The translations under genes were made by a program, and so were the position numbers. The notes under the pieces were generated by a model. That model was not told the origin of the DNA. It ran no database searches and was given only the letters and a program-made list of their open reading frames with translations. Source: Candidatus Oxydemutator sp. (GTDB taxonomy: Bacteria; Pseudomonadota; Gammaproteobacteria; Poriferisulfidales; Oxydemutatoraceae). From it: a stretch of DNA of 64,000 bases. The stretch is from contig OZ241883.1 in NCBI GenBank assembly GCA_965203445.1, positions 608,001-672,000 of the forward strand, written 5' to 3'. This document shows, piece by piece, positions 1 to 47,000 of this stretch; within the stretch, counting starts at the first letter, position 1, and each line of letters starts with the position of its first letter.

Positions 1-3000
1 ATAACGTGGCCGTTGCCTTCAAAAACGGCGCCGTAAGGATTCCTCAAACGGTGCGCGAGCGTGGTGGCCTCTCCGCCTATCGGCTTCCAGTTCAAGCCGG
101 ACAGATCCAGGTCGGCCGACAACTCGTAGCCAGCGCACGTGCTGGGACAGGTCTGCCCGTCGCCGAAAAAGGGAAACGCCGCCAGATAAGCGGCCTCGTC
201 GGCACTGCTCACGCCCGCTATCCCGGCACCGCCCAGGTCGTGGCGGATCGCCGCCAACTGCGACGTCGTCGCCACCTCTATCAAGGTGTCGTCATCAAAG
301 TCGTAGTCTATCTCGTCGCTCGCCCCGATCGTGGTCCTGACGGGAACCGGCACGCCCAGACTCACGCGCGCGGGCACCCCGGTGAGCCTCGCGCCCGTCA
401 ACGTTACCACCAGCACCTCGGAAAACTCAGGCACGTCGTCATCGAGCACTGTCACCGAAAACGACGCGCTGACGGCGCCCGAGGCGATGACCACGCTGCC
501 TGCGGTCGTGCCGACAAAGTCGTCGGCGCCGACGTCGCCGCCCACCGCCCAATCCCAACGCGCGCGCACCCCCGCCGGCAAGACCAGCGGCAAGCGCACC
601 ACGTACCTCGCGGTGCCGCCTTCCGATACGGTAACGCTGCCGGTGAGCGCCGCCGCAAGAATTACCTGCGGCTGCGCCTGCTGCTGCGACGTGCGACGCG
701 CCACCTGCGTGTCGGTAGCGCCGCCGAACACCAGCACCGGGTAATCAAACACGCTGCCGAAATCCCACGGCGCGTCGTCGTTGTAGTCGTCGTCACCCCC
801 CTGATCCACGCCGTCCACGTTCAACCTGTCCCAGCCTTCGTAGAGGGTGCCCGCGGCCGTGGTCGGGACGCGCAACTGGCTCGACGTCTTCGAGGTGTCG
901 TCCGAACTCGGCGCATTCGTTCCTCCGCAGCATCTGCTCTGGCCGCTGCGCTCGGCGTCAAAATAGCTTGCCTGTAGCGTACCGGAACCATAGCCTCCGA
1001 CCAGACCGCCGGACGGAAACCCTTGCAGGCCGTCGCCGTCCCTGGTCAGCCTCGAGAGCGCGTAGCTGGCGCTGACTATGCCCCCGTTCACAACGACGCC
1101 TATCAACCCCCCCACGTTTTGCCCCCGCGACCGCTGATGCACCGGCACGTCCGCATAACTGGCAACTACGACACCCCCGTCCAATCTCCCTACCAGACCG
1201 CCCAAGTCCCAACCACCGCGCACTTGTCTGCCGTCGCCCACCACGTAACACGCCGCCACTTTGCCCGCGTTGTACCCCGCCAACGCGCCCGCCCCTACGC
1301 TTCTGCTGGCCACGTCCGTATGCACGTTGTTCAAACCCACGTTGCGGATCCTGCCTGTGACGCCCACGGCACCAAAAAAGCCCACGCTATCGAAGCGGGC
1401 GGTTGCATTGTTCGTGCTGCGGATCGTTACGTTGCTGATGACGTGGCCGTTGCCTTCAAAAACGGCCTGGTAACGCCGCTCCGGGGGAACGTAGTTCCAG
1501 GGGGCGCGTGTAATCCCCCCGCCTATCGGCGTCCAGTTCGGTACGTCGGACAGATCCAGGTCGGTCGACAACTCGTAGCCGGTGCACGTGCTGGGACAGG
1601 TCTGCCCGTCGCCGAAAAAGGGAAACGCCGCCAGATAAGCGGCCTCGTCGGCACTGCTCACGCCCGCTATCCCGGCACCGCCCAGGTCGTGGCGGATCGC
1701 CGCCAACTGCGACGTCGTCGCCACCTCTATCAAGGTGTCGTCATCAAAGTCGTAGTCTATCTCGTCGCTCACCTCGATCGCGGTCCTGACGGGAACCGGA
1801 ACGCCCAGACTCACGCGCGCGGGCACCCCGGTGAGCCTCGCGCCCGTCAGCGTTACCACCAGAATCTCGGAAAACTCGGGCACGGCGTCATCGAACACTG
1901 TCACCGAAAACGACGCGCTGCTCGCGCCGGAACCAATGACTACGATGCCGGTCGTGCCGACAAAGTCGGCGACGTCGGCTTCGCCGCCGCCCACGACCCA
2001 ATCCCAACGCGCGCTCACCCCCGCCGGCAAGGCCAGAGGCAAACTCACCACGTAACTCGCCGCCTCGCCTTCCGACACCGTCGCGCTGCCGGCGAGCGTC
2101 GCCGCAAGAATTACCTGCGGCTGCGCCTCCCGCTGCGACGTGCGACGCGCCGCCTGCGTCTCGGTAGCGCCACCGAACACCAACACCGGGTAATCGAACA
2201 CGCTGCCGAAGTCCCACGGCGCGTCGTCGTTGTAGTCGCCGTCGTCCCCCTGATCCACGTCGTCCACGTGCAACTTGTCCCAACCCGCGTAGAGGGTGCC
2301 CACCGCGGTGGTCGGCGCGCGCAACTGGTGTGACGCCCTCGGTTTGCAGCAACCACCCTGGCGACTGCGCTCCCGGTCAAAATAACTGGACTCCACCACG
2401 GCGCCGGCCACCCGGTTCCCTATCAAACCGCCAATCGGGTAAATCCCCGTCACTCTCCCGACGGAGTAGCTGGCGCTCACCACCGACGCGCCACCGGCTT
2501 CGCCTATCAGACCGCCCACGTTAGCTCCATCTGCACGCACTTCCACGTCGGCGTAACTCGCCACCAGCCTGCCGGCGTAATGACCCCCTATCAAACCGCC
2601 CACCCCCGCATTGCCGGATACGCGACCGCCAATGACGTAACTCGCCAACACTTCGCCCTCGTTGTCTCCCACCAGCGCACCTATAAACAAGCTGTCACCA
2701 CCCATTTCCACCCGCGCGTTGTGCAAGCCCACGTTGCGGATCACGCCGCCGGCGCCCACCCTGCCGAACAAACCTATCTGCCACTCCCCGTCCCTGGCCA
2801 CGCGCAAATTGCGGATGACGTGGCCGTTGCCTTCAAAAACGGCGGTGTAAGCATCCCCCGGCACGGCACGCGGAACCCCCCCGCCCAGCGGCGTCCAGCC
2901 TGGGCCCGGGGCCGGGTTCACGCTGGACAGATCCAGGTCGGCCGACAACTCGTAGCCGGCGCACGTTCCGGGACAGGTGCGCGTCTCGTCATACAGGGGA

Positions 3001-6000
3001 AACGCCGCCCGATAAGCCCGATAAGCGGCCTCGTTGGCACTGCTCACGCCCGCTATCCCGGCACCGCCCAGGTCGTAGCGGATCGCCGCCAACTGCGACG
3101 TCGTCGCCACCTCTATCAAGTTGTCGTCGTCAAAGTCGTAGTCTATCCGGTCGCTCACCTCGATCGTGGTCCTGACGGCAACCACGCCCAAACTCACGCG
3201 CGCGGGCGCCCCCGTGAGCCGCGCGCCCGTCAGCGTTACCACCAGTACCTCGGAAAACTCGGGCACGTCGTCATCGAACACCACCACCGAAAACGACGCG
3301 CTGACGGCGCCCGAGGCGATGGCCACGCTGCCGGTCGTGGCGACAAAGTCGGCGGCGCCGGCTTCGCCACCGCCCACGACCCAATCCCAACGCGCGCTCA
3401 CCCCCGCCGGCAAGACCAGCGGCAAACTCACCACGTAACTCGCGGTGCCGCCTTCCGACACCGTCTCGCTTCCGGCAAGCGTCGGCGCAAGAATTACCCG
3501 CTGCGCCTGCTGCTGCGACGTGCGGCGCGTCGCCATAGTCTCGGTAGCGCCGCCGAACACCAGCACCGGATAATCAAACACGCTGCCGAAATCCCACGGC
3601 GCGTCGTCGTTCAAATCGCCGTCGTCCGCCCGAGCCACGCCGTCCACGTTCAACCTGCTCCAACCCGCGTAGATGGTGCCCGTCGCCGTCGTCGGGACGC
3701 GCAACTGGTTCGACGTCTTCGAGCTGTTGTCCGGACTCGGCACGTTCGATCCGCAGCAGTCACTCTGGCCGCTGCGCTCGGCGTCAAAATAACTCGACCC
3801 CACCACGGCGCCGACTCTCCTGTTCCCTATCAAGCCGCCGACTATACCGCTCCCCGTCGTTGCCCCGACCGAGTAACTGGCGCTCACCACCGACACGGCG
3901 CCGGCCTCGCCCACCAGACCGCCCGCGTTAGCTCCATCTGCATGCACTTCCACGTCGGCGTAACTCGCCACCAACCCGCCGTAATGACCCCCTATCAGAC
4001 CGCCCACCGCCCATACGCCGGATATGCGACCACCACTGACGTAACTCGCCGCCACCTTGCCTTCGTTGCGGCCCACCAGCGCTCCTATATAAGTGCTATG
4101 GGCACCCACGGACACCCGCGCGTTGCGCAAGCCCACGTTGCGGATCACGCCGACGGCGCTCACCGCGCCGAACAAGCCCGCGTGAGACCGCTGTCCATCG
4201 CTGATCACCCGCAAATTGCTGACGACGCGGCCGTTGCCTTCAAAGACGGCGGTGTAATAATGCTCCTCCTGAAGGGTTTCGACCCCGCCGCCTAACGGCG
4301 TCCAGCCCGCACCCGGAGCCGGGTTCACGCTGGACAGATCCAGGTCGGCCGACAACTCGTAGCCGGTGCACGTGCTCGGACAGGTCTGCGGCGCGCCGAA
4401 AAGGGGAAACGCCGCAAAATAAGCGGACTTGTTCGCACTGCTCACGCCCGCCAGCCCGGCACCGCCCAGGTCATAGCGGATCGCCGCCAACTGCGACGTC
4501 GTCGCCACCTCTATCAGGGTGTCGTCGTCCTCGTCGTAGTCTATCCCGTCGCTGAACTCGATCGTGGTGCTGACGGGAAGCGGCACGCCCAAACCCACGT
4601 GCGCGGGCGCCCCCGCGAGCCTCGCGTTGCTCAACGCAACCACCATGACCTCGGGCGGTTCGATCTCGCCGTCGGCGCGCACCCTCAACGAAAACGACGC
4701 GCTGGCGGTGCCGGATGTGATGACCACGCTGCCCGCGGTGGTGCCGACAAAGTCGTCGGCGTCGACTTCGCCGCCGCCCACCGACCAATTCCAACTCGCG
4801 CTCGCCCCCGCCGGCAAGACCACCGGAAAGCGCACCACGTAACTCGCGATCCCACCTTCCGGCCCCGTCGCGCTGCCGGCGAGCGTCGGCACAAGAATTA
4901 CCCCCTGCGCCTGCTGCTGCGACGTGCGACGCATCGCCTTCGTCTCGGTAGCGCCGGCGAACACCAACACCGGATAATCAAACACGGTGCCGAAATCCCA
5001 CGGCGCGTCGTCGTTCAAGTCGCCGTCGTCTCCCTGATCCACGTCGTCCACGTTCAACTGCTCCCAGCCCTCGTAGATGGTGAGCGCGGCCGCGGTCGGA
5101 CTGAACAACTCGGCTGAGGTCTTCGAGGTGTTGTCCGGACTCGGCGGATTCCTTCCGCAGCAGCTGCTCTGGCCGCTGCGCTGGCCGTCGAAATAACTCG
5201 ACTGCAACACGTCGGCGTAATTCAGCAGCAGATGATCGTCGTGATACTCGTGCCCTCCTATCAAACCGCCGACCGCGGCCGTCCCCATCGTTGCCCCGAT
5301 GGAATAACTGGCGCTCACCACCGACGCGGCGGCGACTTCGCCTACCAGACCGCCCGCGTTCAATCTACCTGAAAATGTCTCACCTGGAGGCACCAATCCG
5401 ATACCTGCCTGCACTTCCACGTCGGCGTAACTCGCCACCAAGCTGCCGTAATGACCCCCGATCAAACCGCCCACCCCAAATACGCCGGATATGCGACCGC
5501 CACTGACGTAACTCGCCGCCACTTTGCCCTCGTTGCGGCCCACCAGCGCACCTATATAAGTGCTACCACTATCATCCAGGTTCACCCGCGCGTTGCGCAA
5601 GCCCACGTTGCGGATGATGCCGTTGGCATTCACGGCCCCGAACAGACCCATGTGCCACCACCGCCCATCCCTGTCCATCCTCAGGTTGCTGATGACGTGG
5701 CCGTTGCCTTCAAAAACCGCGGTGTAATAATAATCCGCCGGAGCTCCGTCCCAGCATACACGCGTGCCCCTCGACTGCCGGGTAACGCAAGAGCGATAAT
5801 CCTGCGGAAAGGCACCATCATTAGGAATCTCATCACTGCCGCCCCCGCCTATCGGCGTCCAGTCCAGGATGCTCGACAGATCCAGGTCGGCCGACAACTC
5901 GTAGCCGGTGCACGACGCCCCCGGACAGGTTTGCGTCTCATCGAAAAAGGGAAACGCCGCCCGATAAGCGGGCCGATCCTCGCTGCTCACGCCCGCCAGC

Positions 6001-8925
6001 CCGGCACCGCCCAGGTCGTGGCGGATCGCCGACAACTGCGACGTCGTCGCCACCTCTATCAGGGTGTCGCCGTCGAGGTCGTAGTCTCTGCCGACTCCGT
6101 CGCTGGGACTGATCACGGTGCTGACGGAAGCCGGCACGCCCAAACTCACGCGCGCGGGCGCCCCCGTGAGCATCGCGTCGCTCAACGCGACCACCATGAC
6201 CTCGGACAACTCGGTAATGACGTCATCGCGCACCCTCACCGAAAACGACGCGCTGCTCGCGCCGGATGCGATGACCACGCTGCCGCTGGTCCTGCCGTCA
6301 AAGTCGTCGGCGATGACCTGGTTGCCGCCCACCGCCCAATTCCAACTCGCAGTCACTCCCGCCGGCAAGGCCCCCGGAAAACGCACCACGTAACTCGCGG
6401 CCTCGCCTTCCGACACCCCCGCGCTCCCGGCGAGCGTCGGCGTAAGACTTACCTCCGGCTGCGTCTCCCGTTGCGCCTCCCGCTGCGACGTGCGACGCGC
6501 CACCTCCGTCTCGGTAGCACCGCCGAACACCAGCACCGGGTAATCAAACTCGGTGCCAAAATCCCACGGAGCGTCATCGTTCAAATCGCCGTCGCTGCCC
6601 TGATCCACGTCGTCCACGTTCAACTTGTCCCAACCGGCGTAGATGGTGCCCGTCGCCGTGATCGGGAGAATCATGTCGCTCGACGTCTTCGCAACAACGT
6701 CGTCCAGACCGAATTCATTCGTTCCGCAGCAACTGCTCCGGAGGCTGCGCTCCTTGTCAAAATAACTCGACTCCACCGCGGCGATGATGGTCACCCCGAA
6801 CTGTCCGCCACCCGCGGTGGCAACCCGCCGCCCTATCAAGCCGCCGACTCTGCTACCCCCCGTCGTTTTCCCGACGGAGTAACTGGCGCTTACCACCGAC
6901 GCGACACTGGCTTCGCCTACCAGACCGCCCACCTCACCTATACTTGCATGCACTTCCACGTCGGCGTAACTCGCCACCAACCTGCCGGAGTTGCCCCCTA
7001 TCAAGCCGCCCACCCTGAATGAACCGGATATGCGACCGCCACTGACGTAACTCGCCGCCACTTTGCCCCGGTTGCGCCCCACCAGCGCTCCCACGTAGAT
7101 GTGTCCTACGGCCACCTGCGCGTTGCGCAAGCCCACGTTGCGGATTCTGCCGTCGGCGCCGACGATGCCGAACAAACCCGTGCCATACACCCCGCCGCCG
7201 CTCATCCGCAGGTTGCTGATGACGTGGCCGTTGCCTTCGAAAACAGCGGTGTAAGCATCCGGCGTATCCCCCCCGCCTAGCGGCGTCCAGTCCGCTATGT
7301 CGGACAGGTCCAGGTCGGCCGACAACTCATAGCCGATGCACGCGCGCGGACAGCTCGCCTCATCAAAAAAGGGAAACGCCTTCCGATAAGCGACGTTGTT
7401 CGTATCGCTCACGCCCGTCACCCCGGCACCGCCCAGGTCGTAGCGAATCGCCGCCAACTGCGACGTCGTCGCCACCTCTATCAAGGTGTCGTCATCAAAG
7501 TCGTAGTCTATCTCGTCGCTCACCTCGATGGTGGTCCTGACGGGAAGCGGCACGCCTAAACTCACGCGCGCGGGCACTCCCGTGAGCCTCGCGCCCGTCA
7601 ACGTTACCACCAGAACCTCGGAAAATTCGGGCACGTCGTCATCAAACACTACCACCGAAAACGACGCGCTGACGGCGCCGGATGCGATGACCACGTCGCC
7701 GCTGGTCGCGCCGACAAAGTCGTCGGTGCTGACTTCGCCACCCACCGCCCAATTCCAACTCGCACTCACCCCCGCCGGCAAGGACTCCGACAAGCTCACC
7801 ACGTAACTCGCGGTGCCGCCTTCCGACACGGTCTCGCTTCCGATGAGCGTCGGTGCAAGACTTACCTGCGGCTGCGCCTGCTGCTGCGACGTGCGACGCG
7901 CCGACTCCGTGTCGGTAGCGCCGCCGAACACCAGCACCGGGTAATCAAACGCGCTGCCGAAATCCCATGGAGCGTCGTCGTTGTAGTCGTCGTCGCCCCC
8001 CTGATCAACGTCGTCCACGTTCAACTTGTCCCAACCGGCGTAGATGGTGCCCGTCGCCGTGATCGGGAGAATCATGTCGCTCGACGTCTTCGCAACAACG
8101 TCGTCCAGACCATGCGCGTTCGTTCCGCAGCAACTGCTCCGGAGGCTGCGCTCCTTGTCAAAATAACTCGACTCCACCGCGGCGATGATGGTCACCCCGA
8201 ACTGTCCGCCACCCGCGGTGGCAACCCGCCGCCCTATCAAGCCGCCGACTCTGCTACCCCCCGTCGTTTCCCCGACGGAGTAACTGGCGCTTACCACCGA
8301 CGCGACACTGGCTTCGCCTACCAGACCGCCCGCCTCACCTAAACTTGCATGCACTTCCACGTCGGCGTAACTCGCCACCAACCTGCCGGAGTTGCCCCCT
8401 ATCAAGCCGCCCACCCTGAATGAACCGGATATGCGACCGCCACTGACGTAACTCGCCGCCACTCTGCCCCGGTTGCGCCCCACCAGCGCTCCCACGTAGA
8501 TGTGTCCTACGGCCACCTGCGCGTTGCGCAAGCCCACGTTGCGGATTCTGCCGTCGGCGCCGACGATGCCGAACAAACCCGTGCCATACACCCCGCCGCT
8601 GCTCATCCGCAGGTTGCTGATGACGTGGCCGTTGCCTTCGAAAACAGCGGTGTAAGAATCCGGCGTATCCCCCCCGCCTAGCGGCGTCCAGTCCGCTATG
8701 CTGGACAGATCCAGGTCGGCCGACAACTCGTAGCCGGCGCACGTGCCCGGACAGGTCTCCATCTCGTCGTACAGGGGAAACGCCGCCCGATAAGCCCGAT
8801 AAGCGGCCTCGTTGGCACTGCTCACGCCCGCCAGCCCGGCGCCGCCCAGGTCGTGGCCGATCGCCGCCAACTGCGACGTCGTCGCCACCTCTATCAAGTT
8901 GTCGTCGTCAAAGTCGTAGTCCACG
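1..8925 (-). repeat. Array of at least 7 beta-helix/Calx-beta modules (~1.4 kb) in gene A
   Basis: DYDxDxDxLIEV caps at ~8920, 7510, 6086, 4540, 3143, 1757 and 308. Confidence 0.85.
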
Positions 8926-9587
8926 CGATCACGCACCTCGACCGTCACCACGTCCACGCCCGTCGCACCGCGCGCGTCCGCAACCGTCAACTCGAACACC
9001 AGCGTCTCCGCCACCACCACCCGCGGCACCGCGAACGTCGCCGTCTCCGACGTGGCGCCCGTCACCCCGACGACCGTGCCGCTGAGCTGACGCCACCGAT
9101 ACGTCAACTCCTCGCCTTCCGGATCATCCGCGACGCCGCGCAGCGTAACCACGTCGCCCTCGCCCGCGATCACGTCGGAACCCGCGTCCACCATCGGCGC
9201 GTCGTTCGCACCCGCGCGCACCGTGATCACCACCGTGTTCGTCGTATTGCCGACCAGCTGCCGTTCCACGGGCGACGACAAACCCCGCACGTCGGTTACC
9301 ACCAGCGCGAACTCAAGCGTCTCGTCGTCCACCAACTGCGTCGGCGCCAGGAACGTCGTGCTGCGCGCCGCGGCGTCGCGCAACGCCACCGTGGCGCCGC
9401 CGGTCTGACGCCAGCCGTACCTCAGCGGCTCGTTGTGCGAACTGCTGCTCGCGGCGCCGTCCAAAGTCACCACGGCGCCCTCGGACACGGTCTGATCAGG
9501 CCCGGCGTGCGCCGTCGGCGCGACCGCTTCCTGGGCGGACACGGTAGCGGCAACGGACAACCCTAATAGCAATAACAGACTACGCAC
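1..9587 (-). CDS. Giant secreted repeat protein A (partial, >3,190 aa): signal peptide, 2 PKD-like domains, at least 7 GLUG-like beta-helix/Calx-beta modules; putative adhesin; out of frame with the ATG at 9615 across the poly-G tract
   Basis: Absent from the ORF track, presumably because there is no stop inside the window. Manual translation from GTG 9587 gives VRSLLLLLGLSVAATVSAQEA, and the same frame reads WTPIGG...YTAVFE near 5860 and AVFEGNGHV at 3-30. Homologous to B and C throughout. An in-frame TGA lies at 9617-9615. Confidence 0.88.
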   Translation of the reverse strand, partial: MRSLLLLLGLSVAATVSAQEAVAPTAHAGPDQTVSEGAVVTLDGAASSSSHNEPLRYGWRQTGGATVALRDAAARSTTFLAPTQLVDDETLEFALVVTDVRGLSSPVERQLVGNTTNTVVITVRAGANDAPMVDAGSDVIAGEGDVVTLRGVADDPEGEELTYRWRQLSGTVVGVTGATSETATFAVPRVVVAETLVFELTVADARGATGVDVVTVEVRDRVDYDFDDDNLIEVATTSQLAAIGHDLGGAGLAGVSSANEAAYRAYRAAFPLYDEMETCPGTCAGYELSADLDLSSIADWTPLGGGDTPDSYTAVFEGNGHVISNLRMSSGGVYGTGLFGIVGADGRIRNVGLRNAQVAVGHIYVGALVGRNRGRVAASYVSGGRISGSFRVGGLIGGNSGRLVASYADVEVHASLGEAGGLVGEASVASVVSASYSVGETTGGSRVGGLIGRRVATAGGGQFGVTIIAAVESSYFDKERSLRSSCCGTNAHGLDDVVAKTSSDMILPITATGTIYAGWDKLNVDDVDQGGDDDYNDDAPWDFGSAFDYPVLVFGGATDTESARRTSQQQAQPQVSLAPTLIGSETVSEGGTASYVVSLSESLPAGVSASWNWAVGGEVSTDDFVGATSGDVVIASGAVSASFSVVVFDDDVPEFSEVLVVTLTGARLTGVPARVSLGVPLPVRTTIEVSDEIDYDFDDDTLIEVATTSQLAAIRYDLGGAGVTGVSDTNNVAYRKAFPFFDEASCPRACIGYELSADLDLSDIADWTPLGGGDTPDAYTAVFEGNGHVISNLRMSGGGVYGTGLFGIVGADGRIRNVGLRNAQVAVGHIYVGALVGRNRGKVAASYVSGGRISGSFRVGGLIGGNSGRLVASYADVEVHASIGEVGGLVGEASVASVVSASYSVGKTTGGSRVGGLIGRRVATAGGGQFGVTIIAAVESSYFDKERSLRSSCCGTNEFGLDDVVAKTSSDMILPITATGTIYAGWDKLNVDDVDQGSDGDLNDDAPWDFGTEFDYPVLVFGGATETEVARRTSQREAQRETQPEVSLTPTLAGSAGVSEGEAASYVVRFPGALPAGVTASWNWAVGGNQVIADDFDGRTSGSVVIASGASSASFSVRVRDDVITELSEVMVVALSDAMLTGAPARVSLGVPASVSTVISPSDGVGRDYDLDGDTLIEVATTSQLSAIRHDLGGAGLAGVSSEDRPAYRAAFPFFDETQTCPGASCTGYELSADLDLSSILDWTPIGGGGSDEIPNDGAFPQDYRSCVTRQSRGTRVCWDGAPADYYYTAVFEGNGHVISNLRMDRDGRWWHMGLFGAVNANGIIRNVGLRNARVNLDDSGSTYIGALVGRNEGKVAASYVSGGRISGVFGVGGLIGGHYGSLVASYADVEVQAGIGLVPPGETFSGRLNAGGLVGEVAAASVVSASYSIGATMGTAAVGGLIGGHEYHDDHLLLNYADVLQSSYFDGQRSGQSSCCGRNPPSPDNTSKTSAELFSPTAAALTIYEGWEQLNVDDVDQGDDGDLNDDAPWDFGTVFDYPVLVFAGATETKAMRRTSQQQAQGVILVPTLAGSATGPEGGIASYVVRFPVVLPAGASASWNWSVGGGEVDADDFVGTTAGSVVITSGTASASFSLRVRADGEIEPPEVMVVALSNARLAGAPAHVGLGVPLPVSTTIEFSDGIDYDEDDDTLIEVATTSQLAAIRYDLGGAGLAGVSSANKSAYFAAFPLFGAPQTCPSTCTGYELSADLDLSSVNPAPGAGWTPLGGGVETLQEEHYYTAVFEGNGRVVSNLRVISDGQRSHAGLFGAVSAVGVIRNVGLRNARVSVGAHSTYIGALVGRNEGKVAASYVSGGRISGVWAVGGLIGGHYGGLVASYADVEVHADGANAGGLVGEAGAVSVVSASYSVGATTGSGIVGGLIGNRRVGAVVGSSYFDAERSGQSDCCGSNVPSPDNSSKTSNQLRVPTTATGTIYAGWSRLNVDGVARADDGDLNDDAPWDFGSVFDYPVLVFGGATETMATRRTSQQQAQRVILAPTLAGSETVSEGGTASYVVSLPLVLPAGVSARWDWVVGGGEAGAADFVATTGSVAIASGAVSASFSVVVFDDDVPEFSEVLVVTLTGARLTGAPARVSLGVVAVRTTIEVSDRIDYDFDDDNLIEVATTSQLAAIRYDLGGAGIAGVSSANEAAYRAYRAAFPLYDETRTCPGTCAGYELSADLDLSSVNPAPGPGWTPLGGGVPRAVPGDAYTAVFEGNGHVIRNLRVARDGEWQIGLFGRVGAGGVIRNVGLHNARVEMGGDSLFIGALVGDNEGEVLASYVIGGRVSGNAGVGGLIGGHYAGRLVASYADVEVRADGANVGGLIGEAGGASVVSASYSVGRVTGIYPIGGLIGNRVAGAVVESSYFDRERSRQGGCCKPRASHQLRAPTTAVGTLYAGWDKLHVDDVDQGDDGDYNDDAPWDFGSVFDYPVLVFGGATETQAARRTSQREAQPQVILAATLAGSATVSEGEAASYVVSLPLALPAGVSARWDWVVGGGEADVADFVGTTGIVVIGSGASSASFSVTVFDDAVPEFSEILVVTLTGARLTGVPARVSLGVPVPVRTAIEVSDEIDYDFDDDTLIEVATTSQLAAIRHDLGGAGIAGVSSADEAAYLAAFPFFGDGQTCPSTCTGYELSTDLDLSDVPNWTPIGGGITRAPWNYVPPERRYQAVFEGNGHVISNVTIRSTNNATARFDSVGFFGAVGVTGRIRNVGLNNVHTDVASRSVGAGALAGYNAGKVAACYVVGDGRQVRGGWDLGGLVGRLDGGVVVASYADVPVHQRSRGQNVGGLIGVVVNGGIVSASYALSRLTRDGDGLQGFPSGGLVGGYGSGTLQASYFDAERSGQSRCCGGTNAPSSDDTSKTSSQLRVPTTAAGTLYEGWDRLNVDGVDQGGDDDYNDDAPWDFGSVFDYPVLVFGGATDTQVARRTSQQQAQPQVILAAALTGSVTVSEGGTARYVVRLPLVLPAGVRARWDWAVGGDVGADDFVGTTAGSVVIASGAVSASFSVTVLDDDVPEFSEVLVVTLTGARLTGVPARVSLGVPVPVRTTIGASDEIDYDFDDDTLIEVATTSQLAAIRHDLGGAGIAGVSSADEAAYLAAFPFFGDGQTCPSTCAGYELSADLDLSGLNWKPIGGEATTLAHRLRNPYGAVFEGNGHV
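9534..9587 (-). other. Sec-type signal peptide of gene A
   Basis: VRSLLLLLGLSVAATVSA|QEA: basic residue, hydrophobic core, V-S-A cleavage motif. Confidence 0.75.
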
Positions 9588-9613
9588 CCCCCCCCCCCCC
9601 CCCCCCCCCCCCC
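9587..9613 (-). repeat. Poly-G tract (G27) at the start of gene A; candidate phase-variation switch, OFF as assembled
   Basis: 27 consecutive C on the + strand. ATG 9615-9613 reads M-G9-A-TAG. Confidence 0.9.
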
Positions 9614-9815
9614 ATCACTGGACCGCCGAGCGTTCACGCTTTCGCGCACTTTCCCGTGACCGGCGGCAACGCGTTGGGAGCAGTCGCTTGCGACAAGATG
9701 GATGCAGGTGCGCCCGATACGGACGGCACGTGCCTAAGGCCAGGGAAATGAGATACCATGCTAATAGGGAACTATAGGCTATATGCCCTGATCCATGAAA
9801 ATGGGCGATTGGGGA

Positions 9816-9824
9816 ATTATATCA
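9816..9824 (-). promoter_or_regulatory. Putative extended -10 promoter (TGATATAAT) for gene A
   Basis: Perfect TGnTATAAT in an AT-rich island, identical in the second intergenic copy; no good -35 at 17 bp spacing. Confidence 0.55.
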
Positions 9825-9906
9825 AGCAGTTAGATCAATTCCATTCCGACTCCTGACAAATAAATACAAGTTATTGTTCCCCCTTGCTTTTATAATCATT
9901 CCGGGA

Positions 9907-9925
9907 AATGACCAAGCCGGCCATT
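9907..9925 (-). terminator. Possible weak terminator or stabilising hairpin after the gene B stop
   Basis: AATGGCC-GGCTT-GGTCATT stem directly after TAG with only a short U run; pairing retained via G-U in copy 2. Confidence 0.25.
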
Positions 9926-9927
9926 GC

Positions 9928-37284: not shown

Positions 37285-38077
37285 CTAATGCACCGAAAAC
37301 ATCCTGCGCCGACCCTCGTTCTCTATCACGAAATACCGATCGGCGGACAACACCTCGCCGTCAAAGTCCACGTCCGCGTCCACCGCGTAATGGCCGGCCG
37401 CGGCCGCGGCGCGGTAGTCGCCCGCACCCAACGACGACAAGTTGTACACGCGTATCAATACTTCGTCCCGTTCATCAATCACGCCGTTTCGATCCACGTC
37501 GCCCGCGACCATCGCATACACGCCCGCCCCCACTGCAATCTGCCCGCCCCCGTGCGACTGCCCGACGCGGAAGTCCACGCAGTAGTCCGCCTCGCAACCG
37601 GCGCCCGTGGTCGCGGCCGCCGGTATCGCCGACATCACCGACAGATGGTTGCGGTGGTGGATCAGCACGTACAGGTCCTCCCCTTCGGACAGCTCCGCCT
37701 CAAAGCGCACGCCGCCCAATGACAGCGCGTCCGCCACCGACGACGCCGCCTCGTTTATCCCCACGATGCGACCGTCGCTCAACAGCAGACCCGCGGCGCG
37801 ACCGCCCGTCGGCGGCCGCGACGACGCGGCCGCGGTCGTGTTCTGGCCGGTGCGCAACTCCACCAGCACCCAGTCCACTATCGTCGAGGTGACACTGGCC
37901 AGGCCGACCGCCGCGCCCGCGTGCGGCACCGTCGTCGTCACCGGGTGCTCCCACGGCAACGCGCCGTACGGCTGGCGCCTCGGCAACAGACCCGCCAAGT
38001 CGCTCCTCATCCGACCGGCCCCGGCAAGCAACGCCCCCTGCAAAACCACTCGCGCGTCCACCACTACGACCCTCTCG
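37285..38077 (-). other. Conserved C-terminal domain of C with dockerin/EF-hand-like Ca-binding loops
   Basis: Same motifs as in B; ends RRRMFSVH. Confidence 0.65.
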
Positions 38078-41000
38078 CTGAAAATGCCAACGTCCGCAAA
38101 CGACGGCGTCCCCAGCTCCGCCAGATGGGTGACGCAATTCGGGCAGCCCGTCAGCCTCAAACGAAACCGCTCGCGGCCCTCATCCCCGATACCGTCGCTC
38201 GGCACGCCCACCTCTATCCTCGCCACACCCGCCTCATTCAGCACCACGCTCCCGGTAAACGGCAGCGAAACCACCGAGCGCACGCCGGCGGCGCCGCGCC
38301 CCGCTACGTGCACCGCGGCCAGGTCCTCGTGCGTCAAACCCTCGGACGCGGCGGCAATCTCATAGTCCACGACCACCGCACGATCACCGCCGCCACTCAA
38401 CGCGATCGTGAACGTCGCGGTAGTGCTTTCGCTCACCGTCGCGGACGTCGCCGCCACCGTCACCTGACTCAGCTCATTGGCCTCTATCGTCGTGCGCGCA
38501 ACGGTGCTCGGCACGCCTAAAACCACGCGCGCGGGCGCCCCCGTGAGCCTCGCGCCCGTCAACGTCACCGCCAGCACCTCGGACAGCTCGGGCTCGCCGT
38601 CCACGCGCACCCTCAACGAAAACGACGCACTGACGGCGCCCGATTCGATGACCACGCTGCTCGCGGTCACGCCGATAAAGTCGTCGGCGTCGGCTTCGCC
38701 GCCGCCCACCGACCAATCCCAACGCACGCTCACCCCCGGCGGCAAGGCCTGCGGCAAGCGCACCACGTAACTCGCGGTGCCGCCTTCCGACACCGTCTCG
38801 CTGCCGGCGAGCGTCGGTGCAAGACTCACCGCCGGCTGCGCCTCCCGCTGCGACGTGCGACGCGCCTGCATCGTTTCGGTAGAACCGCCGAACACCAGCA
38901 CCGGGTAATCGAACACGCTGCCGAAGTCCCACGGCGCGTCGTCGTTCAAGTCGCCGTCGCGTCCCCGATCCAAGCCGTCCACGTTCAACTGATCCCAACC
39001 CGCGTAGATCGTGCCCGCGGTCGTCGTCGGGACGCGCAACTCGCTCGACGTCTTCGAGGTGTCGTCCGAACTCGGCGCATTCGTTCCGCAGCAACGGCTC
39101 AAGCCGCTGCGCTCGGCGTCAAAATAACTCGACTCCACCACGGCGCCGACTACCCGGTTGCCTATCAGACCGCCGGCCGTGGCCGTCCCCGTCGTTACCC
39201 CGACCGAGTAGCTGGCGCTGACCACCGACGCGCCGCCGGCTTCGCCCACCAGACCGCCCGCGTTGCTTTCCTCTGCATGCACTCCCACGTCGGCGTAACT
39301 CGCCACCAGCCCGCCGTAATGACCCCCTATCAAACCGCCCACCCCCGAGGCGCCGGATATGCGACCGCCGATCACGTAACTCGCCGCCACCTTGCCCTCG
39401 TTGCGGCCCACCAGCGCACCGGTATAGGTGCTGCTGCGGCCCAAGTCCACCCGCGCGTTGCGCAAGCCCACGTTGCGGATCACGCCGGCGGCGCCGACGG
39501 CGCCGAACAAACCCACGTGATACCGCTGCCCGTTTCCGGTCATCGTCAGATTGTTGATGACGCGGCCGTTGCCTTCAAAAACAGCGGTGTAAGAATCCAC
39601 CGGATATTCCACCCCCGAGCCCCCGCCTATCGGCGTCCAGTCCGCTACGTCGGACAAGTCCAGGTCGCCCGACAACTCGTAGCCGGTGCACGTGCTCGGA
39701 CAGGTCCGTTTCTCGTCGAAAAAGGGAAACGCCGCATAATAAGCGGATTTGTTAGTCTTGCCCACGCCCGCCAACCCGACACCGCCCAGGTCGTAGCGGA
39801 TCGCTGCCAACTGCGACGTCGTCTCCACGTCTATCAAGGTATCGCCGTCGCCGTTGTAGATTGTTTCGTCGCTCGCCTCGATGATGGTCCTGACGGAAAC
39901 CGGCATGCCCAGATCCACGCCGCGCGCGGGCGCCCCCGTGAGCCTCGCGCCCGTCAACGTCACCACCAGCACTTCGGAAAACTCGGGCTCGTCGTCGTCG
40001 CGCACCCCCACCGAAAACGACGCGCTGACGGCGCCCGAGACGATGGCCACGCTGCTCGCAGTCACGCCGACAAAGTCGTCGGCGTCGACTTCGCCGCCGC
40101 CCACCGACCAATCCCAACGCACGCTCACCCCCGGCGGCAAGGCCTGCGGCAAGCGCACCACGTAACTCGCGGTGCCGCCTTCCGACACCGTCTCGCTGCC
40201 GGTGAGCGTCGGTGCAAGACTCACCGCCGGCTGCGCCTCCCGCTGCGACGTGCGACGCGCCGCCTCCGTGTCGGTAGCGCCGCCGAACACCAGCACCGGG
40301 TAATCAAACACGCTGCCGAAGTCCCACGGACTGTCGTCGTTCAAATCGCCGTCGCCTCTCCGATCCAAGCCGTCCACGTCCAACTGGTCCCAACCGGCGT
40401 AGATCGTGCCCGCGGCCGTCGTCGGGACACGCAACTCGCTCGACGTCTTCGAGGTGTCGTCCGAACTCGGCGCATTCGTTCCGCAGCAACGGCTCAGACC
40501 GCTGCGCTCGGCGTCAAAATAACTCGACTCCACCACGGCGCTGACTACCCGGTTGCCTATCAGACCGCCGACCGTGGCCGTCCCCGTCGTTACCCCGACC
40601 GAGTAGCTGGCGCTGACCACCGACGCGCCGCCGGCTTCGCCCACCAGACCGCCCGCGTTGCTTTCCTCCGCATGCACCTCCACGTCTGCGTAACTCGCGA
40701 CCAAACTGCCGTAATGACCCCCTATCAAACCGCCCACCCCGGATGCGCCGGATATGCGACCGCCACTGACGTAACTCGCCGCCACCTTGCCCTCGTTGCG
40801 ACCCACCAGCGCACCGGTATAGGTGCTGCTGCGACCCAAGACCACCCGCGCGTTGCGCAAACCCACGTTGCGGATCGCGCCGTCGGCGCCGACGGCGCCG
40901 AACAAACCCACGTGATACCGCTGCCCGTTTCCGGTCATCGTCAGATTGCTGATGACGCGGCCGTTGCCTTCAAAAACGGCGGTGTAATAATCTACTGGAG

Positions 41001-44000
41001 CTTCCACCCCCGAACCCCCGCCTAGCGGCGTCCAATCCGCTACGTCGGACAAGTCCAGATCGTTCGACAACTCGTAGCCGGTGCACGTGCTGGGACAGGT
41101 CCGTTTCTCGTCGAAAAAGGGAAACGCCGCATAATAAGCGGCCCTGTTCGCACTGCTCACGCCCGCCGGCCCGACACCGCCCAGGTCATAGCGTATCGCC
41201 GCCAACTGCGACGTCGTCTCCACGTCTATCAAGGTATCGCCGTCGCCGTTGTAGATTGTTTCGTCGCTCGCCTCGATGATGGTCCTGACGGAAACCGGCA
41301 TGCCCAGATCCACGCCGCGCGCGGGCGCCCCCGTGAGCCTCGCGCCCGTCAACGTCACCACCAGCACCTCGGACAACTCGGGCGCGTCGTCATCAAACAC
41401 CGTCACCGAAAACGATGCGCTGACGGCGCCCGATTCGATGGCCACGCTGCTCGCGGTCACGCCGACAAAGTCGTCGGCGTCGACTTCGCCGCCGCCCACC
41501 GACCAATCCCAACGCACGCGCACCCCCGGCGGCAAGGCCTGCGGCAAGCGCACCACGTAACTCGCGGTGCCGCCTTCCGACACCGTCTCGCTGCCGGCGA
41601 GCGTCGGGGCAAGACTCACCGCCGGCTGCGCCTCCCGCTGCAACGTGCGACGCGCCTGCATCGTTTCGGTAGAACCGCCGAACACCAGCACCGGATACTC
41701 GAACACGCTGCCGAAGTCCCACGGACTGTCGTCGTTCAAATCGCCGTCGCGTCCCCGAGCCACGCCGTCCACGTTCAACTGGTCCCAACCCTCATAGATG
41801 GTTCCCGCGGTCGTCGTCGGGACGCGCAACTCGCTCGATGTCTTCGAGGTGTCGTCCGAACTCGGCGCATTCGTTCCGCAGCAACGGCTCAGACCGCTGC
41901 GCTCGGCGTCAAAATAACTCGACTCCACCACGGCGCCGACTACCCGGTTGCCTATCAGACCGCCGACCGTGGCCGTCCCCGTCGTTACCCCGACCGAGTA
42001 GCTGGCGCTGACCACCGACGCGCCGCCGGCTTCGCCCACCAGACCGCCCGCGTCGCTTTCCTCTGCATGCACCTCCACGTCGGCGTAACTCGCCACCAGA
42101 CTGCCGTAATGACCCCCTATCAAACCACCCACTCTCGAGGCGCCGGATACGCGACCGCCACTCACGTAACTCGCCGCCACCTTGCCCTCGTTGCGGCCCA
42201 CCAGCGCACCGGTATAGGTGCTGCTGTGGCCCAAGACCACCCGCGCGTTGCGCAAGCCCACGTTGCGGATGGTGCCGACGGCGCCGACGGCGCCGAACAA
42301 ACCCACGTGATACCGCTGCCCGTCCCCGGTCACCCGCAGATTGCTGATGACGCGGCCGTTGCCTTCAAAAACGGCGGTGTAATAATCCACCGGATATTCC
42401 ACCCCCGAGCCCCCGCCTATCGGCGTCCAGTCCGCTACGTCGGACAAGTCCAGGTCGTTCGACAACTCGTAGCCGGTGCACGTGCTCGGACAGGTCCGTT
42501 TCTCGTCGAAAAAGGGAAACGCCGCATAATAAGCGGCCTTGTTCGCACTGCTCACGCCCGCCGGCCCGACACCGCCCAGGTCGTAGCGTATCGCCGCCAA
42601 CTGCGACGTCGTCTCCACGTCTATCAAGGTGTCGCCGTCGCCGTTGTAGATTGTTTCGTCGCTCGCCTCGATGATGGTCCTGACGGAAACCGGCATGCCC
42701 AGATCCACGCCGCGCGCGGGCGCCCCCGTGAGCCTCGCGCCCGTCAACGTCACCACCAGCACCTCGGAAAACTCGGGCGCGTCGTCGTCGCGCACCCCCA
42801 CCGAAAACGACGCGCTGACGGCGCCCGAGACGATGACCACGTTGCCTGCGGTCGTGCCGACAAAGTCAGCGGCGTCGACTTCACCGCCGCCCACCGACCA
42901 ATCCCAACTCGCACGCACCCCCGGCGGCAAGGCCTGCGGCAAGCGCACCACGTAACTCGCGGTGCCGCCTTCCGACACCGTCTCGCTGCCGGCGAGCGTC
43001 GGGGCAAGACTCACCGCCGGCTGCGCCTCCCGCTGCGACGTGCGACGCGCCTGCACCGTTTCGGTGGAGCCGCCGAACACCAGCACCGGATACTCGAACA
43101 CGCTGCCGAAGTCCCACGGCGCGTCGTCGTTCAAGTTGCCGTCGCGTCCCCGATCCAAGCCGTCCACGTCCAACTGATCCCAACCGGCGTAGATCGTGCC
43201 CGCGGTCGTCGTCGGAACGCGCAACTCGCTCGATGTCTTCGAGGTGTCGTCCGAACTCGGCGCATTCGTTCCGCAGCAACGGCTCAAGCCGCTGCGCTCG
43301 GCGTCAAAATAACTCGACTCCACCACGGCGCCGACTACCCGGTTGCCTATCAGACCGCCGACCGTGGCCGTCCCCGTCGTTACCCCGACCGAGTAGCTGG
43401 CGCTGACCACCGACGCGCCACCGGCTTCGCCCACCAGACCGCCCGCGTTGCTTCCCTCCGCATGCACCTCCACGTCGGCGTAACTCGCAACCAACCGGCC
43501 GTAATGACCCCCTATCAAACCGCCCACCCCCGAGGCGCCGGATATGCGACCGCCGATCACGTAACTCGCCGCCACCTTGCCCTCGTTGCGGCCCACCAGC
43601 GCACCGGTATAGGTGCTGCTGCGACCCAAGACCACCCGCGCGTTGCGCAAGCCCACGTTGCGGATCGCGCCGCCGGCGCCGACGGCGCCGAACAAACCCA
43701 CGTGATACCGCTGCCCGTTTCCGGTCATCGTCAGATTGCTGATGACGCGGCCGTTGCCTTCAAAAACGGCGGTGTAATAATCCACCGGATATTCCACCCC
43801 CGAGCCCCCGCCTATCGGCGTCCAGTCCGCTATGCTGTCCAAGTCCAGGTCGGCAGACAACTCGTAGCCGGTGCACGTGCTCGGACAGGTCCGTTTCTCG
43901 TCGAAAAAGGGAAACGCCGCATAATAAGCGGCCCTGTTCGCACTGCTCACGCCCGCCAACCCGACACCGCCCAGGTCGTAGCGGATCGCCGCCAACTGCG

Positions 44001-47000
44001 ACGTCGTCTCCACGTCTATCAAGGTATCGCCGTCGCCGTTGTAGATTGTTTCGTCGCTCGCCTCGATGATGGTCCTGACGGAAAGCGGCATGCCCAGATC
44101 CACGCCGCGCGCGGGCGCCCCCGTGAGCCTCGCGCCCGTCAACGTCACCACCAGCACCTCGGAAAACTCGGGCTCGTCGTCATCAAACACCCCCACCGAA
44201 AACGACGCGCTGACGGCGCCCGAGACGATGGCCACGTTGCCCGTGGTCGCGCCGATAAAGTCGTCGGCGTCGACTTCGCCGCCGCCCACCGACCAATCCC
44301 AACGCGCACGCACCCCCGGCGGCAAGGCCTGCGGCAAGCGCACCACGTAACTCGCGGTGCCGCCTTCCGACACCGTCTCGCTGCCGGTGAGCGTCGGGGC
44401 AAGACTCACCGCCGGCTGCGCCTCCCGCTGCGACGTGCGACGCGCCGCCTCCGTGTCGGTAGCGCCGCCGAACACCAGCACCGGGTAATCAAACACGCTG
44501 CCGAAGTCCCACGGACTGTCGTCGTTCAAGTTGCCGTCGCCTATCCGATCCAAGCCGTCCACGTTCAACTGATCCCAACCCGCATAGATCGTGCCCGCGG
44601 TCGTCGTCGGGACGCGCAATTCGCTCGACGTCTTCGAGGTGTCGTCCGGACTCGGCGCATTCGTTCCGCAGCAACGGCTCAAGCCGCTGCGCTCGGCGTC
44701 AAAATAACTCGACTCCACCACGGCGCCGACTACCCGGTTGCCTATCAGACCGCCGGCCGTGGCCGTCCCCGTCGTTACCCCGACCGAGTAGCTGGCGCTG
44801 ACCACCGACGCGCCACCGGCTTCGCCCACCAGACCGCCCGCGTTGCTTTCCTCCGCATGCACCTCCACGTCGGCGTAACTCGCCACCAGACTGCCGTAAT
44901 GACCCCCTATCAAACCACCCACTCTCGAGGCGCCGGATATGCGACCGCCACTGACGTAACTTGCCGCCACCTTGCCCTCGTTGCGGCCCACCAGCGCACC
45001 GGTATAGGTGCTGCTGCGACCCAAGTCCACCCGCGCGTTGCGCAAACCCACGTTGCGGATCGCGCCGTCGGCACCGACGGCGCCGAACAGACCCACGTGA
45101 TACCGCTGCCCGTCCGTGGCCATCGTCAGATTGCTGATGACGTGGCCGTTGCCTTCAAAAACGGCGGTGTAATAATCTACTGGAGCTTCCACCCCCGAAC
45201 CCCCGCCTATCGGCGTCCAATCCGCTACGTCGGACAAGTCCAGGTCGCCCGACAACTCGTAGCCAGTGCACGTGCTCGGACAGGTCCGTTTCTCGTCGAA
45301 AAAGGGAAACGCCGCATAATAAGCGGATTTGTTAGTCTTGCCCACGCCCGCCGGCCCGACACCGCCCAGGTCGTAGCGGATCGCCGCCAACTGCGACGTC
45401 GTCTCCACGTCTATCAAGGTATCGCCGTCGCCGTTGTAGATTGTTTCGTCGCTCGCCTCGATCGTGGTCCTGACGGAAAGCGGCACGCCTAAACTCACGC
45501 GCGCGGGCGCCCCCGTGAGCCTCGCGCCCGTCAACGTCACCACCAGCACCTCGGACAACTCGGGCTCGTCGTCATCAAACACCCCCACCGAAAACGACGC
45601 GCTGACGGCGCCCGATTCGATGGCCACGCTGCTCGCAGTCACGCCGATAAAGTCGGCGATGTCGACTTCGCCGCCGCCCACCGACCAATCCCAGCTCGCA
45701 CGCACCCCCGGCGGCAAGGCCTGCGGCAAGCGCACCACGTAACTCGCGGTGCCGCCTTCCGACACCGTCTCGCTGCCAGCGAGCGTCGGGGCAAGACTCA
45801 CCGCCGGCTGCGCCTCCCGCTGCAACGTGCGACGCGCCTGCATCGTTTCGGTAGAACCGCCGAACACCAGCACCGGATACTCGAACACGCTGCCGAAGTC
45901 CCACGGCGCGTCGTCGTTCAAGTCGCCGTCGCCTATCCGATCCAAGCCGTCCACGTTCAACTGGTCCCAACCCGCATAGATCGTGCCCGCGGTCGTCGTC
46001 GGGACGCGCAACTCGCTCGACGTCTTCGGGGCGGTGTCCGAACTCGGCGCATTCGTTCCGCAGCAACGGCTCAAGCCGCTGCGCTCGGCGTCAAAATAAC
46101 TCGACTCCACCACGGCGCCGACTACCCGGTTGCCTATCAGACCGCCGGCCGTGGCCGTCCCCGTCGTTACCCCGACCGAGTAGCTGGCGCTGACCACCGA
46201 CGCGCCGCCGGCTTCGCCCACCAGACCGCCCGCGTTGCTTTCCTCTGCTTGCACCTCCACGTCGGCGTAACTCGCCACCAGACTGCCGTAATGACCTCCT
46301 ATCAAACCGCCCACCCCAAAGGCGCCGGATACGCGACCGCCGATCACGTAACTCGCCGCCACCTTGCCCTCGTTGCGGCCCACCAGCGCACCGCTATAGG
46401 TGCTGCTGCGACCCAAGTCCACCCGCGCGTTGCGCAAGCCCACGTTGCGGATCGCGCCGTCGGCGCCGACGGCGCCGAACAAACCCACGTGATACCGCTG
46501 CCCGTTTCCGGTCATCGTCAGATTGCTGATGACGCGGCCGTTGCCTTCAAAAACGGCGGTGTAATAATCCACCGGATATTCCACCCCCGAGCCCCCGCCT
46601 ATCGGCGTCCAGTCCGCTATGCTGTCCAAGTCCAGGTCGGCAGACAACTCGTAGCCGGTGCACGTGCTCGGACAGGTCCGTTTCTCGTCGAAAAAGGGAA
46701 ACGCCGCATAATAAGCGGCCCTGTTCGCACTGCTCACGCCCGCCGGCCCGACACCGCCCAGGTCATAGCGTATCGCCGCCAACTGCGACGTCGTCTCCAC
46801 GTCTATCAAGGTATCGCCGTCGCCGTTGTAGATTGTTTCGTCGCTCGCCTCGATGATGGTCCTGACGGAAACCGGCATGCCCAGATCCACGCCGCGCGCG
46901 GGCGCCCCCGTGAGCCTCGCGCCCGTCAACGTCACCACCAGCACCTCGGACAACTCGGGCGCGTCGTCATCAAACACCGCCACCGAAAACGATGCGCTGA

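Follow-up and report, generated by a model that had tools for sequence, protein, structure and literature searches.

A 27-nucleotide poly-G run at the translation start of a giant gene in Candidatus Oxydemutator sp. is a candidate slipped-strand frame switch

Introduction

The locus described here lies in a stretch of 64,000 nucleotides of Candidatus Oxydemutator sp. (assembly GCA_965203445.1, contig OZ241883.1, positions 608,001 to 672,000 of the forward strand), which was analyzed at its full length and is called the window. An uninterrupted run of 27 G (G27) occupies the translation-initiation region of gene A, a giant gene on the minus strand, and most likely serves as an expression switch that is prone to slippage and belongs to a well-known kind. 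Phase variation at homopolymers is textbook knowledge for mucosal pathogens and has hardly been described for uncultured host-associated environmental bacteria. Our literature search found no paper tying homopolymer phase variation to this lineage or to sponge symbionts. The host bacterium of gene A is probably host-associated and is not known as a pathogen.

The closest layout to that of gene A is found at licA. In the licA gene of Haemophilus influenzae, start codons stand in two of the three frames ahead of CAAT repeats, and the expression follows the repeat number, as described in passages of PMC2212159. The repeat number at licA thus selects the start that is fused, if any, and leaves one frame OFF. 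At gene A, one frame has the ATG at 9615 (with a GTG at 9618), another has the GTG at 9637, and the third has no start ahead of the run. The licA repeat is a tetranucleotide and its product is a small cytoplasmic kinase, whereas gene A carries a homopolymer and encodes a giant secreted protein. Gene A differs further in that its run ends on the 3' side in a start-like GTG, which is always in frame. Switching was demonstrated for licA and is predicted for gene A.

The closest repeat type is the intragenic poly-G tract near the 5' end of surface and glycosyltransferase genes in Neisseria, such as pilC1/pilC2, pglA, and lgtA. The pilC run reportedly lies within the signal-peptide codons. Ranges of G9-20 for pilC and lgtA and of G9-21 for pglA, with a modal length of 9-10, are given in the excerpted text of PMC5953494, and the poly-G tracts of the lgt genes are named in a passage of PMC2192423. 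Neisseria is also similar in having a multi-locus phasome, a set of such runs at surface, glycan, or defence genes, in a mismatch-repair-proficient bacterium. It differs in tract length, as the mode of 9-10 nt compares with 18-28 nt for the 12 longest runs of the present genome and with lengths that reach 45-70 nt in its relatives. The closest family logic is that of Neisseria opa, in which surface paralogs each carry an N-terminal coding repeat and most are out of frame. The opa repeat is a genic CTTCT (7-21) in up to 12 copies, according to the same excerpt of PMC5953494. Comparable sets are genes A to D of the present genome and a paralog family in the relative G022, with one of 12 copies in frame. 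The opa genes differ in their pentamer repeat, in their small outer-membrane products, and in that switching is experimental there only.

Genome-wide intragenic and intergenic G/C runs drive phase variation in Campylobacter and Bordetella, as stated in parts of PMC8355987 and PMC1891110. The likeness of these phasomes to the present genome lies in the genome-wide sets of G/C runs in both positions. Tract lengths in Campylobacter and Bordetella are typically about 8-15. To our knowledge, Campylobacter is without MutS and MutL, whereas the genome of gene A has both. Gene A differs from the known systems in run length, gene size, and host lineage.

If the runs switch as we infer, a 2.4-Mb genome with a large share of its DNA in giant secreted proteins would express these proteins stochastically and independently. 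Such stochastic expression, if true, would bear on the escape from host phagocytosis, phages, and competitors. Gene callers and quality checks of metagenome-assembled genomes (MAGs) will report such genes as frameshifted or choose arbitrary starts for them. Runs of 20-70 nt are at the limit of what assemblies report reliably today.

The G27 run and the reading frames at the start of gene A

The run was located by reading the sequence and by a script, and both gave an uninterrupted C27 on the plus strand at 9587-9613, which is G27 on the minus strand. A G27 tract directly after an ATG had been reported in the original prediction, which was made from the letters of the window without database searches, and it was found as described. 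The minus strand reads CAGTGATG, 26 more G, and then TGCGTAGTCTG. The AT at 9615-9614 precedes the run, whose first G completes the ATG at 9615-9613. Base composition alone predicts 1.4e-7 runs of at least 27 nt in a genome of 2.38 Mb. A poly-G/C tract of at least 9 is the usual cut-off for phase variability (PhasomeIt), and the mutability grows with the tract length, as stated in the excerpted text of PMC5953494. G27 exceeds this cut-off.

The run length determines which start is joined to the long frame of gene A. The ATG at 9615 is fused to this frame when the run length mod 3 is 2 (26 or 29), a rule already proposed in the original prediction and confirmed by the frame analysis. At the assembled length of 27 (3n), the same ATG reads M-G9-A followed by the TAG at 9582-9580, again as first proposed, and this stop lies 5 nt past GTG 9587. 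The original account of the starts was correct for ATG 9615 and GTG 9587 and incomplete in that a third candidate was overlooked, the GTG at 9637, which is fused at 3n+1. Neither ATG 9615 nor GTG 9637 is fused to the long frame at the length of 27. A TGA in the long frame abuts the 5' side of the run (9617-9615); therefore, no start 5' of the run is in phase with the long frame. The product from GTG 9587 begins with RSLLLLLGLSVAATVSA/QE and resembles a signal peptide. In the products from ATG 9615 and GTG 9637, poly-Gly comes before the signal-peptide core, and the predicted cleavage site VSA/QE is common to the products of all candidate starts.

These features suggest a mechanism for the control of gene A. 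The G27 would be a hypermutable homopolymer in the translation-initiation region, where slipped-strand mispairing at replication adds or removes G and changes which upstream start joins the frame of 16,130 codons. Lengths of 3n+2 would fuse ATG 9615 and place poly-Gly ahead of the signal-peptide core, lengths of 3n+1 would fuse GTG 9637, and lengths of 3n, including the assembled 27, would fuse neither, leaving gene A OFF or reduced to initiation at GTG 9587. Leakage via GTG 9587 could occur, for example, by reinitiation after the M-G9-A upstream open reading frame (uORF). Since no change of length takes GTG 9587 out of frame, the OFF state may be leaky or the run may be a leader element. The anatomy, the paralogs, and the known mutability of such repeats point to a high rate of length change, to an upstream start as the main start, and to an expression that follows the frame. 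Because start codons in all three frames bracket the run, its length may select among N-termini or expression levels and may not be a plain ON/OFF control. We give an even chance to a licA-like frame switch by slipped-strand mispairing at the G27 of gene A, in which the assembled length falls into the third, silent frame.

An intact downstream open reading frame (ORF) is a criterion for a contingency locus, and gene A has one. The long frame is open for 16,130 codons from GTG 9587 (genome 569225-617614) and leaves the window; the intact frame of more than 9.5 kb noted at first was thus borne out in the genome. The encoded protein has two K319L-like PKD domains at its N-terminus and many Calx-beta matches. 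The 16,130 codons without a stop indicate that gene A is under selection and is not decaying. A pseudogene, frameshifted in a functionless run, would agree with the ATG frame being broken in the assembly. This explanation is extremely improbable, given the open frame, the same device on the intact neighbour B and on other giant-gene 5' ends, and the GTG 9587 that is in frame.

In structure, gene A has the marks of a contingency locus in its run length, its intact ORF, its membership in a phasome, and the length variation between its paralogs. It appears from the sequence comparison to be one of about a dozen contingency loci in the genome. The reversible OFF switch of the original prediction gains from the intact giant gene, from the run at the translation start, and from the genome-wide and lineage-wide set of runs described below; its OFF state rests on the assembled length.

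Paralogous 5' ends of the giant genes

The signal-peptide codons of gene A occur four times in the genome, in genes A to D. The flanks of these paralogous 5' ends are 91% (A versus B, 623 nt) to 98% identical, whereas the runs are G27 in A, G25 with a 4-nt duplication in B, G8 in C, and G8 in D. The run length is therefore the most labile character of the region. B, C, and D have their ATG in frame, and A has it out of frame. In gene B, a TGCG duplication (36945-36938) behind the G25 puts the ATG at 36972-36970 in frame, and a 1-nt deletion upstream brings a further GTG into the frame of this ATG. Genes C and D have identical 5' ends right after the preceding stop codon, with GGTCCAGTGATG, eight G in all, and then TGCGTAGT. 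Their ATG is in frame (M-G-G-V-R-S...), and both genes may be read from an ATG 5 nt past the preceding stop.

The upstream regions set A and B apart from C and D. A and B share a segment of 282 nt between the upstream stop codon and the common 22 nt before the ATG. The 5' half of this segment has 39.5% G+C, compared with 65.9% for the window. An extended -10-like word, TGATATAAT (9824-9816), stands about 205 nt before the ATG in A and likewise in B, and its only two occurrences in the whole window, both strands included, are those upstream of A and of B. The copies with long runs, A and B, look like independently transcribed units, because they have their own 282-nt segment with TGATATAAT, while C and D closely follow the preceding stop. 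The sole -10-like word is about 205 nt upstream, so the run does not fall within a promoter spacer.

The start regions of the other two giant genes, E and F, also resemble parts of the gene A region. The start of paralog E, ATG-AAT-GCT-CGG-CGG (MNARR), resembles GTG-AAC-GCT-CGG-CGG at 9637, and the start of paralog F corresponds to GTG 9587, as detailed below. The 5' region is a mosaic, with more than one candidate start by its sequence. An internal stretch of paralog F (genome 726135-726785) has 85% protein identity to residues 10-229 of gene A. Given this identity to the N-terminus of A, the 5' module of A to D may derive from an internal module.

Genome-wide set of G/C runs

The genome (G000) is a single contig of 2,378,814 bp with 63.6% G+C. 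The original prediction had treated the run of gene A by itself; it is one of 13 G/C runs of 13-28 nt in this genome (13, 18, 19, 20, 21, 23, 24, 25, 25, 26, 27, 28, and 28). The distribution of run lengths is bimodal, with a steep fall to 8-10 nt and no run of 11-12 or 14-17. Twelve runs of at least 18 were observed, compared with 0.004 expected from base composition. Four of the 13 runs lie at most 150 nt from the 5' boundary of a frame of at least 1,200 codons (0.09 expected, P = 1.8e-6), and the run of gene B is a fifth giant-gene 5' run by paralogy. The run of gene A belongs to this set, a putative phasome whose runs occupy places usual for contingency loci, among them surface, glycan, or defence genes.

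Three runs stand at or near the 5' end of 2OG-Fe(II) oxygenase-like, HAD-like, and GT4/GT1-like genes. In the HAD-like gene, the run is a C26 at 1824504, four codons after the ATG, and is in frame. Two runs are in genes of unassigned family: a G23 at 81736, in frame over 427 codons, and a G20 at 359212, which splits a frame of about 300 codons. A Pfam search with the products around these two runs gave no match even at E = 5, and the guess of a family-25 glycosyltransferase for 359212 was unsupported by Pfam. Three runs adjoin the ends of two arrays of clustered regularly interspaced short palindromic repeats (CRISPR). The clearly intragenic runs are mixed in their frame state, with the G23 at 81736, the C26 at 1824504, and the run of gene B in frame, and the G20 at 359212 and the run of gene A out of frame. 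No common offset was found among the intragenic runs in this frame census.

Runs in related genomes

The best named match of the MutS encoded in this genome is that of a MAG, 'uncultured Candidatus Porisulfidus sp.', with 72% identity; further matches come from assorted Gammaproteobacteria at about 50-57% identity. The genus name Candidatus Porisulfidus appears in the abstract of a sponge genome note.

A run of at least 16 was found in 22 of 53 genomes of the order, the present genome counted. When the present genome is left out, such runs occur in 9/18 genomes of family f1, 12/16 of f2, 0/17 of f3 (genomes of about 1 Mb), and 0/1 of f4. The numbers of runs of at least 14 in five relatives are 6 (G001), 8 (G003), 8 (G010), 45 (G022), and 77 (G004). 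Among 17 runs examined in G001, G003, and G010, the lengths reach up to 45 and 70. The extreme runs are a C70 in G010 (L154), a C45 in G001 (L144), and a G48 beside a gap in G003 (L003), and the 77 runs of G004 are extreme in number. These may be partly assembly or sequencing artefacts, because several sit at contig ends in draft genomes.

The relative G022 has the clearest intragenic runs. Twelve of 20 loci examined there (of 45) belong to one paralog family (L095-L109), with the layout ATG, 23 codons, G16-G26, and then CAT-AGC-CTC-CGT-TTC-CTG, which encodes a hydrophobic core. The family has no start codon behind the run, and the run is therefore certainly intragenic there. L109, which has an extra A, is the sole in-frame copy among the 12.

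As a control, one genome per family was taken from about 200 families of the class, and a run of at least 16 was found in 28 of 201 genomes. Besides the present genome and its order-mate G019, only G064, G121, and G202 have at least 10 such runs. The remaining genomes have 1-4 runs, many of them in the first 100 contig bases, where sequencing artefacts are likely. G064, a genome from a different family of the class, has its runs (G16-G55) in a repeated element (loci L122-L140) whose flanks are conserved on either side of the run, the downstream flank being common to 18 of 19 loci. By their sequence context, the G064 runs look like part of a mobile or repeated element, which is different from gene 5' ends.

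The run-bearing genes were also compared between genomes. A tblastn search with 11 run-gene products of the present genome against 41 loci of the relatives gave two weak or partial matches, neither at a common run position. Residues 1-229 of gene A, compared with 21 genomes, matched PKD repeats only, and among the matches listed, those outside its own genome begin at residue 12 or later. Two words from the signal-peptide codons (24 nt and 22 nt) had 0 matches in the metagenome and genome contig collections.

A broader proposal covers the whole lineage. The lineage, although proficient in mismatch repair, may run a large phasome of unusually long G/C homopolymers, which would control giant adhesin-like genes, enzymes of glycan modification, and perhaps CRISPR arrays. 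The run length at gene A would then select among three N-termini or expression levels, and a G-quadruplex and RNA-level slippage may contribute. This proposal is tentative, and we place its chance somewhat short of even.

Evidence weighing against a frame switch and the alternative explanations

Several observations weigh against a frame switch at gene A and are given here together with the explanations on which they bear. The original prediction had noted that the run might instead tune initiation from GTG 9587. This remains a serious rival judging from the sequence, because GTG 9587 keeps to the long frame whatever the run length and is aligned with the ATG of paralog F. If so, GTG 9587 would be the true start, and the run would be an expanded G-rich leader or Shine-Dalgarno region that tunes ribosome binding, structure, or transcription independent of frame, with the ATG frame as a short uORF. 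We regard this explanation as possible and, on balance, doubtful.

The comparison with paralog F is the first of these observations. Paralog F starts with ATG-CGT-AGC-CTG (M-R-S-L-L) at the position of GTG-CGT-AGT-CTG in A, and the GTGAGGGGC before this start aligns with the GTGATGGGG of A to D. By this alignment, a G stretch resembling a Shine-Dalgarno sequence may be the origin of the run. Termination at the M-G9-A stop, 5 nt past the GTG, would permit reinitiation there. Runs elsewhere also stand in leader positions. In the present genome, the runs at 793242, 2324554, and 2328499 are 5' of a likely start, and in the family to which the gene at 780955-793290 belongs, the conserved ATG (ATG-AGA-ATT) of three paralogs has a C21, a C7, or no run about 30 nt ahead of it. 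Therefore, some runs, if active, act from the leader and not via the frame. Similarly, 7 of the 17 runs examined in G001, G003, and G010 are poly-C just 5' of signal-peptide-like frames of more than 600 codons, and the frame therefore cannot matter for those runs.

The paralogs C and D speak against initiation from the GTG, since their G8 leaves about 3 nt between the G-rich pairing site and the GTG, whereas their ATG is in frame and has GGCGG ahead of it. Gene B has its ATG as well as its upstream GTG in frame, and the G022 run, which is of the same kind, lies unambiguously within a coding region. The G27 is also predicted to fold into a quadruplex that buries the GTG. Within the family of A to D, the run is not at a fixed distance before a conserved start and abuts both candidate starts. 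On the other side, the frame states of the paralogs, with the ATG in frame in two independent cases (B and C/D) and out of frame in A, would arise by chance about 1 time in 4, which weighs against the frame switch.

A search for leader and promoter signals gave few results. The two-hexamer promoter scan and the terminator scan of 9400-10100 each returned 0, and the former leaves the frame switch without a predicted promoter of this type in that interval. Known RNA families had 0 matches at the gathering score in the whole window. As a test of a structured leader, the RNA of 9810-9520 folded no better than shuffles (z = +1.62). With quadruplexes allowed, ViennaRNA used all 27 G (6+1+6+1+6+1+6) in six layers, and the minimum free energy of 9680-9540 was -120.5 kcal/mol with this option and -54.7 kcal/mol without it, which is a model output.

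The mismatch-repair genes also weigh on the negative side. The genome has an intact MutS (289 bits, frame of 879 codons) and an intact MutL (143 bits, frame of 600 codons), and thus there is no general mismatch-repair defect that raises slippage.

The offsets in G022 may point to other explanations. Among the copies with canonical flanks, the run length mod 3 is 2 in 8/10 and 1 in 2/10, and none of the 10 is in frame. This common offset would mean that most of the family is OFF, that the assembler miscalls by a constant amount, or that a correction takes place at the RNA level. At the RNA level, polymerase slippage, ribosomal frameshifting on nine GGG codons, or both would mix the frames from any DNA length, so that the run would be a dimmer, making expression lower and more random, and not a heritable ON/OFF switch, and a six-layer G-quadruplex may add repression. 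The 8/10 offset would fit a fixed correction of this kind. The predicted quadruplex with all 27 G would fit as well, though its energy is the output of a model. The entire RNA-DNA hybrid would be homopolymeric at the run, and GGG makes up a minority of the Gly codons in the window part of gene A (87 of 445). Slippage is better documented for A/T runs than for G/C runs. A precedent exists in Buchnera, in which polymerase slippage at poly(A) rescues frameshifted genes, as described in a part of PMC2831843. The intragenic runs of the present genome are without a common offset, which argues against such a correction, and we consider an RNA-level explanation quite unlikely.

The assembled length itself may be wrong by one or two bases. 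Most cells would then have 26, 28, or 29, and the OFF state would be an assembly artefact of a run that possibly still varies. Homopolymer length is generally known as the main remaining error of long-read consensus sequences, as also stated in a passage of PMC9262707, and long homopolymers are error-prone in assemblies. The assembled contigs from four public sequencing runs all break at G27; none bridges 9577-9623, and they resume at 9624. Mapping of these contigs skips repeats at G27, so the length of 27 is an assembly value only. Six sequencing runs match the locus, and none is recorded as RNA. The common offset of the G022 family could be a systematic under-call. In the present assembly, the G23, C26, and G25 are in frame, and therefore no uniform miscall is present; a uniform one-base assembler miscall was also tried and does not rescue the frames. 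Since two of the three length classes would be ON, the prior for a true length of 3n is still about one third. A miscalled length is, on balance, unlikely. Both the RNA-level explanation and the miscall are compatible with the slipped-strand frame switch and are not exclusive of it.

Feature coordinates, neighbouring genes, and other observations

The features of the window are collected in Table 1. A tandem array of six giant genes occupies the minus strand from genome 727874 to 569225, in the order F, E, D, C, B, and, as the last, A. Their stop-to-stop frames have 4,326, 9,139, 3,521, 10,540, 9,081, and 16,130 codons, respectively. The whole genome has 57 stop-to-stop frames of at least 1,200 codons, with antisense shadows counted.

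Table 1 Features of the window around the start of gene A and in the neighbouring giant genes.
Feature	Window coordinates	Strand	Basis
Gene A, window part; signal-peptide-like N-terminus RSLLLLLGLSVAATVSA/QE	3..9587	-	ORF list, whole-genome frame
Short ATG frame at the assembled length, M-G9-A-TAG; its stop (9582-9580) overlaps early codons of the long ORF	9580..9615	-	
GTG, final G of the run plus TG; candidate start in the long-ORF frame at all run lengths	9585..9587	-	
G27 homopolymer (C27 on the plus strand)	9587..9613	-	sequence and script
ATG candidate start, joined to the long ORF at run length 3n+2 only; same-frame GTG (9618-9616) just 5'	9613..9615	-	
TGA in the long-ORF frame, abutting the 5' side of the run	9615..9617	-	
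Upstream GTG, V-N-A-R-R-S-S-D and then the run; candidate start in the third frame, fused at 3n+1	9635..9637	-	
Segment upstream of A and B only, absent in C and D	9635..9916	-	
Gene B, upstream neighbour of A; stop-to-stop frame of 9,081 codons	9928..36972	-	
G25 run at the gene B 5' end, paralogous to that of gene A	36946..36970	-	
Gene C, window part; 10,540 codons in the genome; 5' end beyond the window	37285..63999	-	

The last 5,000 residues of the gene A protein had no Pfam family match at E = 1e-5. Matches of the window in a sponge metagenome (share 0.05) are short pieces only, 90-99% identical and in repeat domains, and no habitat was drawn from them.

A replication-strand bias of the runs was considered and rejected. 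The cumulative GC skew of the genome is lowest near 880 kb and peaks locally near 2.0 Mb. Read in this way, G is on the leading strand in 9 of the 13 runs, a share that is not significant and in which gene orientation and the giant genes' own skew are confounding factors.

The runs beside the two CRISPR arrays have an arrangement of their own. From genome 1381142 onward (L113 3142-5970), a G25 and a C28 form an inverted pair, 41 nt apart, which could form a 25-bp G:C hairpin judging from its sequence. Upstream lies a Schlafen AlbA_2/HATPase_c_4 gene, whose frame runs into the G25 of this pair and ends there. The pair itself ends 31 nt before a CRISPR array with at least 38 repeats of 36 nt. 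Pairs of a G run and a C run like this one are also found in the relative G003 (L003 and L147). From genome 1459668 onward (L114 2168-4450), a G18 stands about 97 nt before the second CRISPR array, with a degenerate repeat between them, and this array has at least 35 repeats of 36 nt and spacers of 30 nt.

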